64,000 nucleotides of DNA, taken from the NCBI GenBank assembly GCA_037190625.1, contig JBBCJP010000008.1:716-64715 (forward strand), written 5' to 3'. Of this stretch, positions 16,553 to 46,446 are shown one piece after another. The position numbers and the translations under genes are program-made. This DNA comes from Alphaproteobacteria bacterium. GTDB taxonomy: Bacteria; Pseudomonadota; Alphaproteobacteria; Sphingomonadales; Sphingomonadaceae. Each line of letters begins with the position of its first letter. The stretch's first letter is position 1. Under the pieces are notes generated by a model. That model did not search any database. It saw only the letters and a list, made by a program, of their open reading frames with translations, and was not told the origin of the DNA.

Positions 16553-16638
16553 CGTCACCCTGAACTTGTTTCAGGGTCCATTTTCTCATGTGTCGCTCCA
16601 GTCTCCGAAATGGATGCTGAAACAAGTTCAGCATGACG
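16553..16638. repeat. CGTC-ended palindromic (REP/MITE-like) element
   Basis: Arms CGTCACCCTGAACTTGTTTCAG (16553-16574) and CTGAAACAAGTTCAGCATGACG (16617-16638) are near-perfect inverted repeats. Confidence 0.85.
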
Positions 16639-18282: not shown

Positions 18283-18367
18283 GCCGTTCGCCCTGAGCCT
18301 GTCGAAGGGCTGTCCTTCTTGCAGCAAAAGAGAAGGAAAGGGCTTCGACAAGCTCAGCCCGAACGGC
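18283..18367. repeat. Palindromic REP-like element between convergent genes
   Basis: GCCGTTCGCCCTGAGCCTGTCGAAG (18283-18307) inverted to CTTCGACAAGCTCAGCCCGAACGGC (18343-18367), with an internal hairpin. Confidence 0.85.
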
Positions 18368-26237: not shown

Positions 26238-27159
26238 CGGTGCCGGTCGCCCGGGTGAGGTTCAGGAACACATCCTCCAGATCCGCCTCGCGGGTCGAGA
26301 CGTCGACGATACCCAGTCCTTCGCGCTGGAGCGCGGCGAGCACGTCGCCGGCATTCACCTTGTCCTTGCGATAGGTGATCGCCAGCACCCGCTCGCCTTT
26401 CAGCTCCACCTTCTCGAACGGCGCGGCGTCGGGGGCATGGGCGATGTCGCGGTCGGTGACGACCTCGACCACCTTCTCCTGCGCCATGCCGACCAGGTCG
26501 CGCGTCGCCTCGTTCGCGATCACCTTGCCGTGATTGATGATCGCGATCCGGTCGCAAAGCTCCTCGGCTTCCTCCAGATAATGCGTGGTGAGCACGATCG
26601 TGACGCCCTGCGCATGGAGCGAGCGGACATAGTCCCAAAGCTGCTGGCGCAGCTCCACGTCGACGCCCGCGGTCGGCTCGTCGAGCACCAGGATGGGCGG
26701 CGAATGGACCATCGCCTTGGCGACCAGCAGCCGGCGCTTCATGCCGCCCGACAGGGTGCGCGCATAAGCGTTGGCCTTGTCCTCCAGCCGCACCGCGCGC
26801 AGCAGCTCCATCGATCGCCGTTCGGCCTTGGGGATGCCGTAGAGGCCGGCGAACAATTCCAGCGTCTCGAACGGGGTGAAGAAGGGATCGAACAGGATTT
26901 CCTGCGGCACCACGCCGATCGCCCGCTTGGCGTTGCGCGGATGGGCGTCGATGTCGAAGCCCCAGATGGAGGCGGTGCCGCCGGTCTTCATCACCATCCC
27001 GGCCAGGATGTTGATCGTCGTCGATTTGCCGGCGCCGTTGGGGCCGAGCAGCCCGAAAATCTGGCCGCGCGGCACGTCCAGCGAAATCCCGTCGAGCGCG
27101 CGCTTGCCACCCTGATAGGTCTTTTCCAGATCGCGGATCGAAATCGCGGCGTCGTCCAT
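26230..27159 (-). CDS. ABC transporter ATP-binding protein (YadG-like)
   Basis: GPNGAGKST, LSGGMKRR, LDEPT, TTHY; start ATG 27159. Confidence 0.92.
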   Translation of the reverse strand: MDDAAISIRDLEKTYQGGKRALDGISLDVPRGQIFGLLGPNGAGKSTTINILAGMVMKTGGTASIWGFDIDAHPRNAKRAIGVVPQEILFDPFFTPFETLELFAGLYGIPKAERRSMELLRAVRLEDKANAYARTLSGGMKRRLLVAKAMVHSPPILVLDEPTAGVDVELRQQLWDYVRSLHAQGVTIVLTTHYLEEAEELCDRIAIINHGKVIANEATRDLVGMAQEKVVEVVTDRDIAHAPDAAPFEKVELKGERVLAITYRKDKVNAGDVLAALQREGLGIVDVSTREADLEDVFLNLTRATGTDG

Positions 27160-27250
27160 GGCGAACCGCATAGCCGCCTTCACGGCCCACGAAAAGCGGG
27201 GCGCGCACGGCGGATTGTCGTGCGCGCGGGCGCTTGCTAAGGCGCGGATC

Positions 27251-27448
27251 ATGGCTGCCACCGATCCCCTCGTGCCCGAAACCGCTTATGTGACCGGCAC
27301 CCGCGTCGCCTGCGACGGCGCGACGGAAATCTCGCCCGCGCTCGGCCATCCGCGCGTCTTCCTGCAGATCGACGAGAAGGGCTATGTCGACTGCGGCTAT
27401 TGCGACAAGCGCTTCATCCTGAGGGGCGGCCCGGCGGACCGAGCCTAG
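27251..27448 (+). CDS. zf-CHCC zinc-finger protein (NDUFS6-like)
   Basis: VACDG...LGHPRVFL...CGYC signature; start ATG 27251. Confidence 0.85.
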   Translation: MAATDPLVPETAYVTGTRVACDGATEISPALGHPRVFLQIDEKGYVDCGYCDKRFILRGGPADRA

Positions 27449-27456
27449 CTTTCCCT

Positions 27457-27486
27457 CGTCATTGCGAGCGCAGCGAAGCAATCCAG
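27457..27486 (+). repeat. CGTC-type REP copy 1 (left of GIY-YIG gene)
   Basis: CGTCATTGCGAGCGCAGCGAAGCAATCCAG. Confidence 0.9.
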
Positions 27487-27497
27487 TTCGGCGCCGG

Positions 27498-27785
27498 TCA
27501 ATGGATGATGCTCTCGTAAAGATCGAGCCAGTCCGGGTTCATCGCTTCGATCAGCGCCAGCTTTTTCGCCCGTGAACCGGCCTTGATCTGCTTTTCGCGC
27601 AGGATGGCGGCGCTCATATCGCCGTGCAGTTCATACCAGACCAGTATCTTACAGCCGTAGCGGGCGGTGAAGCCCACCGATCCGTTCTTGTGCTGCCAGA
27701 TTCGCGCGATGAGATCGGACGTTACGCCGGCATAGAGTGTTCCGTTGCGCCGGCTGGCCACGATGTAGACGGCGGGCTGCTTCAT
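27498..27785 (-). CDS. Stand-alone GIY-YIG nuclease (YhbQ/UPF0213-like), 95 aa
   Basis: VYIVAS..NGTLYAGVTSDL..RIWQH, WYE...AILREKQIK, NPDWLDLY; start ATG 27785. Confidence 0.9.
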   Translation of the reverse strand: MKQPAVYIVASRRNGTLYAGVTSDLIARIWQHKNGSVGFTARYGCKILVWYELHGDMSAAILREKQIKAGSRAKKLALIEAMNPDWLDLYESIIH

Positions 27786-27795
27786 CCACACCGTT

Positions 27796-27826
27796 CTGGA
27801 TTGCTTCGCTGTCGCTCGCAATGACG
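27796..27826 (-). repeat. CGTC-type REP copy 2, inverted (right of GIY-YIG gene)
   Basis: Reverse complement is CGTCATTGCGAGCGACAGCGAAGCAATCCAG, one base different from copy 1. Confidence 0.9.
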
Positions 27827-27838
27827 AAAAAGGAAGCT

Positions 27839-27872
27839 CGTCATTGCGAGCCCATAGGGCGCGGCAATCCAG
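27839..27872 (+). repeat. CGTC-type REP copy 3 (variant)
   Basis: CGTCATTGCGAGCCCATAGGGCGCGGCAATCCAG. Confidence 0.85.
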
Positions 27873-27915
27873 TCCGGCCTTCGACAAGTGCGTCTGAGCA
27901 CCCTATATCCTCCAG

Positions 27916-29340
27916 ATGACACCCGATCCCCGCCGCTTCCTCTATCGCCCCGCCGGCCTCGATCCCGATGCCGCGCTTCGTCTCACCGCCGATGCCCTGA
28001 AGGGCTGCGACGATGGCGAGCTCTATCTGCAATATACCGCCTCGGAGAGCTTCAGCTTCGACGACGGCCGGCTGAAGACCGCCGATTTCAACACCCAGGC
28101 GGGCTTCGGCCTGCGCGGCGTGTCCGGCGAGACGACGGCCTTCGCCCAGGCCAACGACATCAGCGAGGCGGGGATCCGCCGCGCCGCCGAGACGATGGCG
28201 GTGCTCGATCCGGCCAAAGGTGCGCGCGCCGCGCCGCCCCGGCGCACCAATGCCAATCTCTACACCGATGCCGATCCGCTGAGCCTGATCCCGTTCGCGA
28301 AGAAGGTCGCGCTCTGCCAGCAGATCGACGCCGCCGCGCGCGCGCGCGACCCGCGCGTCGCGCAGGTCTCGGTGAGCCTGGCGGGCAACTGGAGCGTGAT
28401 CGAGATCGTCCGGCCGGACGGCTTCGTCGCCCATGACGTGCGCCCGCTGGTGCGGCTCAACGTCCAGATCATGGTCGAGCAGAACGGCCGGCGCGAGACC
28501 GGCTATCACGGCCTTGGCGGCCGCTATCTCTATGACGAGCTGTTCGAGCCCGCGACCTGGAACCGCGCGATCGACGTCGCGCTGGCCCAGGCCCTGGTCA
28601 ATCTCGACTCCGTCGCGGCGCCGGCGGGCGAGATGACGGTCGTGCTCGGCCCCGGCTGGCCCGGCGTGCTGCTGCACGAGGCGGTTGGCCATGGGCTGGA
28701 GGGCGATTTCAACCGCAAGGGCACGTCGGCATTCTCCGGCCGGATCGGCGAGCGGGTCGCCGCCCCCGGCGTCACCGTGATCGACGACGGCGCCATGGGT
28801 GCGCGGCGCGGCTCGCTCACCATCGACGACGAAGGCACGCCGACGCAGCGCAACGTGCTGATCGAGGACGGCATCCTGAAGGGCTATATCCAGGACCGGA
28901 TGAACGCACGGCTGATGGGCGTCGAACCGACCGGCAACGGGCGCCGGGAAAGCTTCGCCCATGCCCCGATGCCGCGCATGACCAACACCTTCATGCTCGG
29001 CGGCAAGGACGATCCGCGCGAGATCCTCGCCCGCGCGAAGAACGGCATCTATGCCAAAAGCTTCGGCGGCGGGCAGGTGGATATCACCTCGGGCAAGTTC
29101 GTCTTCTCCTGCACCGAGGCCTACCGGATCGAGGACGGCAAGCTGGGCGCGCCGATCAAGGGCGCGACCCTGATCGGCGACGGGCCGACCGTGCTTACGC
29201 AGGTGAAGGCGATCGGCGACGACATGGCGCTGGACGAGGGCATCGGCATTTGCGGCAAGGGCGGACAGTCCGTCCCCGCCGGCGTCGGCCAGCCCACCCT
29301 GCTGATCGAGGGACTGACGGTGGGCGGCACCGCCGCATGA
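27916..29340 (+). CDS. tldD: Metalloprotease TldD
   Basis: GPGWPGVLLHEAVGHGLEGDFNRKG, PRMTNT, CGKGGQSVPAGVGQPT. Confidence 0.97.
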   Translation: MTPDPRRFLYRPAGLDPDAALRLTADALKGCDDGELYLQYTASESFSFDDGRLKTADFNTQAGFGLRGVSGETTAFAQANDISEAGIRRAAETMAVLDPAKGARAAPPRRTNANLYTDADPLSLIPFAKKVALCQQIDAAARARDPRVAQVSVSLAGNWSVIEIVRPDGFVAHDVRPLVRLNVQIMVEQNGRRETGYHGLGGRYLYDELFEPATWNRAIDVALAQALVNLDSVAAPAGEMTVVLGPGWPGVLLHEAVGHGLEGDFNRKGTSAFSGRIGERVAAPGVTVIDDGAMGARRGSLTIDDEGTPTQRNVLIEDGILKGYIQDRMNARLMGVEPTGNGRRESFAHAPMPRMTNTFMLGGKDDPREILARAKNGIYAKSFGGGQVDITSGKFVFSCTEAYRIEDGKLGAPIKGATLIGDGPTVLTQVKAIGDDMALDEGIGICGKGGQSVPAGVGQPTLLIEGLTVGGTAA

Positions 29341-43385: not shown

Positions 43386-43452
43386 CGTCACCCCGGCGAA
43401 GGCCGGGGTCCAGATGGGCCCCACAACTTTCGCGGCCTGGGCCGCAATGACG
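43386..43452. repeat. CGTC-type REP with degenerate partner
   Basis: CGTCACCCCGGCGAAGGCCGGGGTCCA ... GCAATGACG. Confidence 0.75.
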
Positions 43453-46144: not shown

Positions 46145-46446
46145 TCAATCCCGCCAATAGCTTCCCCGCTCCGCGCCGTCGAAACCGGCCGGAGGACATG
46201 CAGTAGCGCTTGAAATCTCTTCCCCGAACCGCATGGGCACGGATCGTCGCGGCCGAGTTTCTCGACCAACTCCTTCTCGCCGCCGCGCAAGAAGCGCAGC
46301 CCGCGCTTCACCCGCGTCTCGCTCGGTAAGCCCCTTCCTTCATTGCGAGCTCGCAGGGCGCGGCAATCCCGATTGCGACGCGACTGGATCGCCACGGCGC
46401 TACGCGCCTCGCGATGACGGACGATAAACCTCGGAACCCGGATCAA
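46145..46446 (-). CDS. SEC-C motif protein, apparently needing two +1 frameshifts; start uncertain
   Basis: PSETRVKRG...[22 protein letters not shown] in frame 0. A +1 shift at TTT-C (46215-46212) gives [10 protein letters not shown], and a second +1 at TTT-C (46184-46181) gives [11 protein letters not shown]-stop (46147-46145). Confidence 0.6.
46339..46419. repeat. Inverted pair of CGTC-type REPs (same family as 27457-27872)
   Basis: TTCATTGCGAGCTCGCAGGGCGCGGCAATCC ... CTGGATCGCCACGGCGCTACGCGCCTCGCGATGACG. Confidence 0.8.

Follow-up and report, generated by a model that had tools for sequence, protein, structure and literature searches.

An Ssn-type GIY-YIG nuclease gene inserted beside tldD in a Sphingomonadaceae genome, with the CGTC-tagged repeats that are its probable cognate motif

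Ssn proteins are nucleases specific for hairpin repeats in single-stranded DNA (ssDNA) (Chenal et al., Nat Commun 2025;16:2388; PMC11893778). SsnA of Neisseria meningitidis, a 94-aa single-domain GIY-YIG protein classified under cd10448 (GIY-YIG_unchar_3), is encoded by a gene flanked by NTS repeats, CGTCATTCCCGCGMAVGCGGGAATCYRG. It binds NTS as ssDNA only and in one orientation, cuts a few nucleotides upstream, and no longer cuts as the Y6A, Y17A, or E64A variant; the three bases before the NTS palindrome matter for cutting, and the C directly after it matters for binding (PMC11893778). Three other Ssn homologues cut their own motifs, which brings to four the homologues with biochemistry. The association of gene and repeat has been described across phyla: an Ssn-related motif (SRM) lies near 71% of homologues and on both sides of 42%, and 81% of genomes with more than 200 SRMs encode an Ssn homologue (PMC11893778). 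The Neisseria enzyme lowers transformation by NTS-bearing DNA, and the discussion of the same paper notes that NTS-ssnA-NTS resembles an insertion sequence and draws a parallel to IS200 and to the REP-associated tyrosine transposases (RAYTs) with their repetitive extragenic palindromic elements (REPs). Here we analyze a small GIY-YIG gene enclosed by CGTC-tagged repeats in a 64,000-nt window, the whole stretch of DNA under study, from a 2.74-Mb, 25-contig assembly of an alphaproteobacterium of the Sphingomonadaceae (GCA_037190625.1, contig JBBCJP010000008.1). Coordinates refer to this window unless a contig is named.

Our conclusion, which we hold with considerable confidence, is that the gene encodes an Ssn-family single-domain GIY-YIG nuclease, that the flanking repeats are its cognate variant motif, and that the cassette was inserted at this site. 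The ssn-like gene (27498..27785, minus strand) has 95 codons, with its ATG at 27783-27785 and its stop at 27498-27500. It sits between inverted copies of CGTC-ATTGCGAG...GCAAT-CCAG. Repeat copy A, of the short type (27457..27486, plus strand; CGTCATTGCGAGCGCAGCGAAGCAATCCAG), lies 11 nt past the stop codon and consists of the CGTC tag, an ATTGC basal stem, a GAG/AA internal loop, a CG-CAG-CG tip, GCAAT, and a CCAG tail. Its inverted partner, copy B (27796..27826, minus strand), lies 10 nt 5' of the start codon and differs from A solely by one inserted base; the unit from A to B (27457-27826) measures 370 bp. Alongside stands a third, variant copy, C (27839..27872, plus strand), with the inner stem CCC-ATA-GGG and placed tag-to-tag with B, so that on the plus strand the gene stands between two copies, A and C, of like orientation. 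The first-pass annotation of the window, made from the letters alone, had described this enclosed gene, its spacings, and the third copy, and we recovered all of it base for base. We took the ATG as the start codon, rather than an upstream TTG, because homologues open at the same MKQP.

Membership in the Ssn family follows from the protein itself. The Pfam GIY-YIG domain (PF01541, E 2.5e-12) spans residues 5-75 of 95 and is the only domain found; NCBIfam holds no family match for the protein. For a direct comparison, Neisseria genomes reached by a DNA uptake sequence (DUS)-plus-NTS pattern were searched with a profile of 33 homologue sequences. The only match in N. gonorrhoeae was a 94-aa open reading frame that carries Y6, Y17, and E64 and has an NTS repeat right after its stop codon, and the profile search returned no homologue in N. 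polysaccharea or N. lactamica NS19. The window protein is 60% identical to this gonococcal SsnA orthologue (E 4e-39, residues 3-94 against 2-94), well inside the homology threshold of E < 1e-10 used by Chenal et al. (2025). The catalytic Y6, Y17, and E64 of SsnA align with Y7, Y18, and E64; the 33 homologues all share Y18, R28, H32, and E64, and at least 90% of them have Y7. Moreover, the gene is flanked on both sides by a repeat that is dispersed in its genome, another mark by which an Ssn gene is recognized, and several paralogues in the window's genus (L125, L009, and L011) have flanks that fit the NTS consensus exactly. The ratio of nonsynonymous to synonymous substitution rates (dN/dS) is about 0.17, with synonymous sites saturated (median proportion of synonymous differences, pS, 0.70); thus, protein and repeat sequence are both under constraint, and their conservation is not neutral.

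Structural comparison places the protein among GIY-YIG domains in general. The AlphaFold (AF2) model is a compact single-domain GIY-YIG fold (predicted local distance difference test, pLDDT, 96), and its best matches in the Protein Data Bank (PDB) are the GIY-YIG domains of 1zg2 (template modeling score, TM, 0.55), Slx1 (7cq3), and the UvrC N-terminal domain, with no close relative or Ssn entry among the structural matches. By sequence, the PDB yields 1zg2 only, at E 0.1 and about 22% identity. The stand-alone UPF0213/Slx1-like proteins, such as BH0048 (1zg2) and EF2693 (1ywl), thus share a minimal GIY-YIG domain with the window protein and supply its best structural matches, but they are distant in sequence and differ at a characteristic residue: Asn83 of the window protein is conserved and is invariant in its clade, whereas the Slx1-like group has been reported to lack the corresponding Asn (PMC1564403).

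The repeat is a genuine family. It occurs beyond chance: the 12-mer CGTCATTGCGAG is found 66 times in the genome against once for a reversed control, and the 14-mer TCGTCATTGCGAGC, with up to two mismatches, has six matches in the window against 1.1 expected. Of these 66 units, 48 are arranged as 24 inverted doublets, and 18 of the doublets are heterodimers of a short arm (inner GCGNAGCGAA) and a long arm (inner GGAGCGNAGCGACGMR), joined by spacers much more variable than the arms. In the general layout, a CGTC tag that stays unpaired precedes a basal stem of 5 bp (ATTGC/GCAAT); the stem encloses an internal loop, GAG/(C)GAA, and a small paired tip of variable sequence, and a CCAG tail follows. 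Conservation of the CGT before the anchor reaches at least 90%, and the tail reads CCAG in 197 units, CCAT in 22, and CCAC in 13. Inverted doublets fold at -30.4 kcal/mol (z -6.9), and copy C alone at -7.6 kcal/mol (z -2.25). Pairing in the stem is backed by the variable paired tips and by a compensatory ATCGC/GCGAT change, which is seen in a solo doublet within the window. The first-pass annotation had placed a nuclease-free member of the family near 46339-46419, and it is there, as a diverged doublet at 46338-46419: the left arm (46338..46371, plus strand) has CTTC in place of the CGTC tag, and the right arm (46384..46419, minus strand) reads CGTC-ATCGCGAG...GCGAT-CCAG, with ATCGC...GCGAT replacing ATTGC...GCAAT in the basal stem.

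These repeats share their main features with the CGTC-tagged REPs, for which no dedicated enzyme was reported (Di Nocera, De Gregorio and Rocco, BMC Genomics 2013;14:522; PMC3733652). The unpaired CGTC tag, the CCA(G)-like tail, high copy number, extragenic location, a prevalence of inverted dimers (here the 24 doublets), and predominance in Alphaproteobacteria are common to both. The stem is comparable, with good folding in copy C and in whole doublets but not in single short-type units. The classification as CGTC-REPs is not used in the accessible part of the text of the Ssn paper (PMC11893778), yet the CGTC-tagged REPs of 2013 and the Ssn-related motifs of 2025 are one repeat set in two literatures. 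The locus also resembles the published Ssn/SRM system in its 94-95 aa GIY-YIG protein, whose catalytic Tyr, Tyr, and Glu are the same, in oriented hairpin repeats on both sides that carry a CGTC tag and a post-stem C, in the scattering of the repeat in tens to hundreds of copies, and in the presence of several paralogue-repeat pairs per genome. Thus it is already covered in kind by that system and is not a new type of system. Differences lie in the motif: NTS is an 8-bp palindrome, whereas in CGTC-ATTGCGAG-variable tip-GAA-GCAAT-CCAG the basal stem has 5 bp and leads through an internal loop to the variable tip, and the genomic doublets here, unlike published Ssn motifs, pair short and long arm types.

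REPtrons, in which RAYT genes encoding Y1 HUH transposases are flanked by GTAG-tagged REPs or REPINs, make a more distant comparison. In both, a small nuclease gene present in single copy is embedded in a repeat family of its own, inheritance is partly vertical, the repeat arrangement varies, and a tagged hairpin would be recognized in ssDNA. REPtrons, however, have an unrelated fold and proceed through a covalent HUH-tyrosine intermediate rather than GIY-YIG hydrolysis, and transposition is only putative for the nuclease. The locus is not a REPtron: its protein is a GIY-YIG nuclease, the tag is CGTC and not GTAG, and a search of the host genome for the Y1/RAYT transposase family (PF01797) gave no match, although the controls responded.

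The cassette is an insertion. It is located between two plus-strand genes, a zf-CHCC gene (27251-27448) and tldD (27916-29340), and the spacer between them measures 467 nt here against 18-48 nt in seven syntenic congeners, which provides the empty site that the first-pass annotation had suggested looking for in relatives. The inserted segment comprises roughly 424 bp (27455..27878); its right edge is at about 27878/27879, judged by sequence common to three congeners (G015, G006, and G004), and its left edge is approximate. On inspection, no target-site duplication was seen at the cassette junctions. The closest homologues (81% and 79% identity), in Allosphingosinicella metagenome-assembled genomes, adjoin quite different genes, and the 81 loci that we compared fall into 59 genomic contexts, of which a few are apparently shared within sphingomonads, Sphingopyxis, and Bradyrhizobium. 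Repeats around the gene also differ from locus to locus in order, type, and orientation, with more than 30 different arrangements among 80 loci, and we therefore rejected a fixed element architecture.

Two observations touch on these surroundings. Four congeners (G014, G011, G005, and G009) carry a different CGTC repeat, of the CCCCGGCGAAGGCCGGGG type, directly upstream of tldD; this promoter-proximal spacer is a repeated target of repeats. In eight Sphingomonadales genera (L044, L048, L049, L053, L056, L060, L079, and L085), common flanking gene families surround a ATTGCGAG-type cassette, as judged by blastp at 40% identity or more and hence from gene families rather than confirmed synteny; such shared flanks may reflect long vertical retention beside the many unique contexts.

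Variable ends and the lack of a visible duplication at the junctions also set the cassette apart from an insertion sequence with terminal inverted repeats. Homing endonucleases of the I-TevI type, another class of GIY-YIG enzyme, have a separate DNA-binding domain and reside in an intron or a phage genome. The window protein is a single domain of 95 aa encoded at a chromosomal intergenic site, and we rejected this assignment as well.

The host genome has two other Ssn paralogues, which share 53% and 58% identity with the window protein, and each (C7:375239-375517 and C7:289555-289818) is wrapped by its own repeat family. These are two different abundant CGTC-tagged families, of the CCCCGGC type and the CTGAA/CTGAC type, so that the genome holds three nuclease-repeat pairs. 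Among relatives, hairpins with a CGTC or TGTC tag likewise enclose 30 of 31 further paralogues, and single genomes such as G015 contain four nuclease clades, each with its own repeat. On a tree of 33 protein sequences, which takes in 32 relatives, repeat stem type, labeled by the analyst from repeat-finder output, changes nine times, whereas 1000 shuffles of the labels gave 20.9 changes on average and never fewer than 16; the ATTGCGAG-flanked proteins group together in a clade supported at 97%. Farther afield, the 80 best homologues in species genomes are 63-81% identical, and their hosts include Kuenenia and other Planctomycetota, Nitrospina, Legionellales, Bdellovibrionales, and Rickettsiales. 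Within 170 nt of the gene, the exact 11-mer GTCATTGCGAG is present on both flanks in 56 of the 80 and on one flank in 12, at a density of 7.5 per kb near the gene versus 0.15 per kb farther away, a 50-fold enrichment. Taken together, these sequence comparisons support the view that the small GIY-YIG nuclease is a dedicated partner of the CGTC-tagged repeats around it.

It could be objected that repeats simply pile up in permissive intergenic spacers and that the gene happens to lie among them, an idea for which the repeats of other families upstream of tldD in four congeners might be cited. We consider this explanation refuted, and its chance of being right negligible, by the wrapping of all three host paralogues and of nearly all those in relatives, by the attachment of each clade to its own repeat type even within one genome, and by the local enrichment just described.

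Repeat abundance follows the nuclease as well. Across 41 genomes, repeat counts correlate with Ssn copy number at rho 0.66, and within the genus at 0.54, values that are not phylogenetically corrected. The first-pass annotation had proposed that both the number and the sequence variant of the repeats should track the nuclease, and both expectations are borne out. A ATTGCGAG-type gene is present in 5 of 11 repeat-rich genomes and in none of 30 repeat-poor ones. Strict co-occurrence of the ATTGCGAG repeat and its cognate gene can be rejected: six genomes hold 56-217 copies, and those of their Ssn genes that were examined are flanked by repeats of other types. A profile search detected no Ssn-type gene in two congeners rich in CGTC-tagged repeats, G017 (99% complete; 114 repeats) and G014 (185 repeats); genes flanked by repeats may drop out of short-read assemblies where contigs end. 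Within the genus, Ssn genes are patchy, with 0-5 copies per genome, and split, truncated, or stop-containing versions occur in congeners (G020:C70:53323-53596, G012:C113:8018-8107, and, with one TAG each, G038:C528 and G019:C31), which indicates that Ssn genes decay as well as spread.

Several considerations weigh against the identification of this locus as an Ssn nuclease with its cognate motif. Our yardstick was the gonococcal orthologue, not the assayed SsnA protein of N. meningitidis. Co-variation of protein and repeat follows just as simply if the gene and its flanks are inherited as one unit. None of the 66 ATTGCGAG units matches the published SRM pattern, HGTCWYN(0-2)YYVSBRHN(0-5)WNVSBRGN(0-2)RNCYNB. 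Finally, lone short-type units fold weakly, at -2.7 to -3.7 kcal/mol and no better than shuffles, so recognition may differ from that of NTS or need a doublet. On the other hand, the SRM pattern is a search tool and not the definition of the Ssn family, and the ATTGCGAG repeat retains the CGTC tag and the post-stem C that are published as functionally important. The pattern finds 60 sites in the host genome against 12 in a control, and none of them is a ATTGCGAG or CTGAA unit; the clade would therefore pair with a motif outside the pattern. This is the modest novelty here: an Ssn clade apparently paired with a bipartite-stem repeat that the published search motif does not capture.

By homology with SsnA, the protein would bind the folded repeat only in ssDNA and only in one orientation, and would cut a few nucleotides 5' of the CGTC tag, with the GTC before the stem governing cutting and the C after the stem governing binding. 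The cassette of repeat, gene, and repeat that entered between the zf-CHCC gene and tldD belongs, on this reading, to a lineage that moves between sites, and between phyla, along with its repeat. Its role may be the restriction or processing of repeat-bearing ssDNA, as in Neisseria, the dispersal of the repeat, or both.

How far the nuclease is responsible for the spread of the repeats is a question on which the evidence divides. The first-pass annotation had cast it as the functional analogue of RAYT for the CGTC family. The dedicated repeat partner that this idea calls for is supported by wrapping and co-variation and, for homologues, by specific binding and cleavage in vitro, whereas its novelty is not, since both the pairing and the analogy are already in print (PMC11893778); a mobilizing role is only hypothetical. 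In the fullest form of the idea, cleavage of repeat tags in ssDNA would lead to the excision of repeats and of the repeat-flanked gene and to their copying to new sites, and solo doublets would be non-autonomous derivatives of the nuclease cassette, a status for them that is plausible but undemonstrated. The insertion of the cassette with its repeats, the many contexts of its homologues, the correlation of repeat counts with Ssn copy number, the restriction of the ATTGCGAG-type gene to genomes rich in that repeat, and the lack of a RAYT match in the host genome all agree with such an engine, and two same-strand cuts upstream of the A and C tags could in principle free the 370-bp unit as a single strand. 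We nevertheless think it rather doubtful. A GIY-YIG nuclease forms no covalent intermediate, and strand-transfer, ligation, or DNA-joining activity is not known for it; the activity that has been published is ssDNA cleavage that lowers transformation in Neisseria. Repeats abound in G017 and G014, where no Ssn gene was detected, and in the six genomes whose examined Ssn genes carry other repeats. The arrangement around the gene is highly variable, no target duplication was seen at the cassette junctions, doublet spacers are much more variable than the arms, which is not the pattern of units copied whole, and the orientation of short/long doublets relative to GC skew (11 of 20) gives no sign of strand-coupled insertion. 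We are similarly hesitant about a broader proposal, already floated in print, in which Ssn nucleases would be the replicative enzymes that the CGTC-tagged REP superfamily as a whole has long lacked, a hydrolytic counterpart of RAYTs working through ssDNA intermediates, with the ATTGCGAG clade as a separate specificity class marked by its bipartite stem and short/long heterodimers.

Alternatively, the nuclease may have a domesticated host function only, in which it restricts or trims repeat-bearing ssDNA during transformation, conjugation, repair, or replication while the repeats spread by other means and the gene-adjacent copies represent autoregulation or historical baggage. Lowered transformation is the only biological effect demonstrated in the Ssn family (PMC11893778), purifying selection acts on the gene, repeats persist where the gene is absent, and the eight Sphingomonadales loci with shared flanking families may represent one context kept vertically across genera. 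This reading deserves to be taken seriously, though we would not favor it as it stands: the patchiness of the gene within one genus, its insertion at the zf-CHCC-tldD site, and identities of 63-73% even in other phyla, among them Planctomycetota and Nitrospinota, are traits of an element that is selfish or moves horizontally, and pseudogenes and remnants exist. Less probable still is a homing-type selfish gene that cuts solo doublets and is copied in by repair from a gene-bearing copy through the repeat arms, so that the gene spreads and the repeats are not created. The gene does occupy the position of a doublet spacer ('+ gene -') here and in 6 of 80 loci, and it is confined to repeat-rich genomes. 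Yet no relative has a solo doublet at the zf-CHCC-tldD site, which is simply empty; most solo doublets are short-long heterodimers, whereas both arms around the gene here are of the short type; double-stranded DNA is not cut by the published homologues; and 30-nt arms are short for recombinational repair.

An Ssn-family nuclease with a cognate variant motif, as we interpret the locus, has several implications. The gene could be annotated as an Ssn-type ssDNA nuclease instead of a hypothetical GIY-YIG protein, and the CGTC-REPs described without an enzyme in 2013 are joined to the motifs of 2025. The clade is widespread, being found in at least 80 species genomes from several phyla, and the fact that its motif escapes the published search pattern has practical relevance, given that Ssn enzymes are under development as site-specific ssDNA cutters. 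Furthermore, three nuclease-repeat pairs in a small genome, an empty site in congeners, and the repeat-rich congeners G017 and G014 make this a natural test case for repeat mobility.

Some minor features of the locus and of the window complete the description. A promoter and terminator scan of the locus returned no promoter-like site and one weak terminator-like site, within copy C, and an Rfam scan of 26500-29000 at E up to 1 gave no match. Other CGTC-tagged units are present in the window. A solo doublet of another family, at 16553-16637, has CGTC-ACCCTGAA-CTTGT-TTCAGGGT-CCA facing CGTC-ATGCTGAA-CTTGT-TTCAGCAT-CCA; its family numbers 34 and 25 units in the genome and is related to the repeats around the paralogue at C7:289555-289818. 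The doublet at 43386-43452 is of mixed type, combining a CGTC-ACCCCGGC-GAAG-GCCGGGGT-CCAG unit with a short CGTC-ATTGCGGCC-CAGG unit. A separate repeat, GCCCTTCGACAGGCTCAGGGCGAACGG, has 30 genomic copies, one of them at 18285-18350 in the window; they mostly form inverted pairs flanking a T/C-rich spacer, and no CGTC tag was seen in the contexts inspected. Outside the window, the 30-nt motif GTGACAGAGCATTTCCTACATTGGAAGCGG has 23 genomic copies (C1:158914, C2:130047, C3:203152, and 20 more). In most of the copies inspected it lies 3' of a small GC hairpin and 5' of a ...GACCCGTTGCGG box, and it is a candidate RNA or regulatory element.

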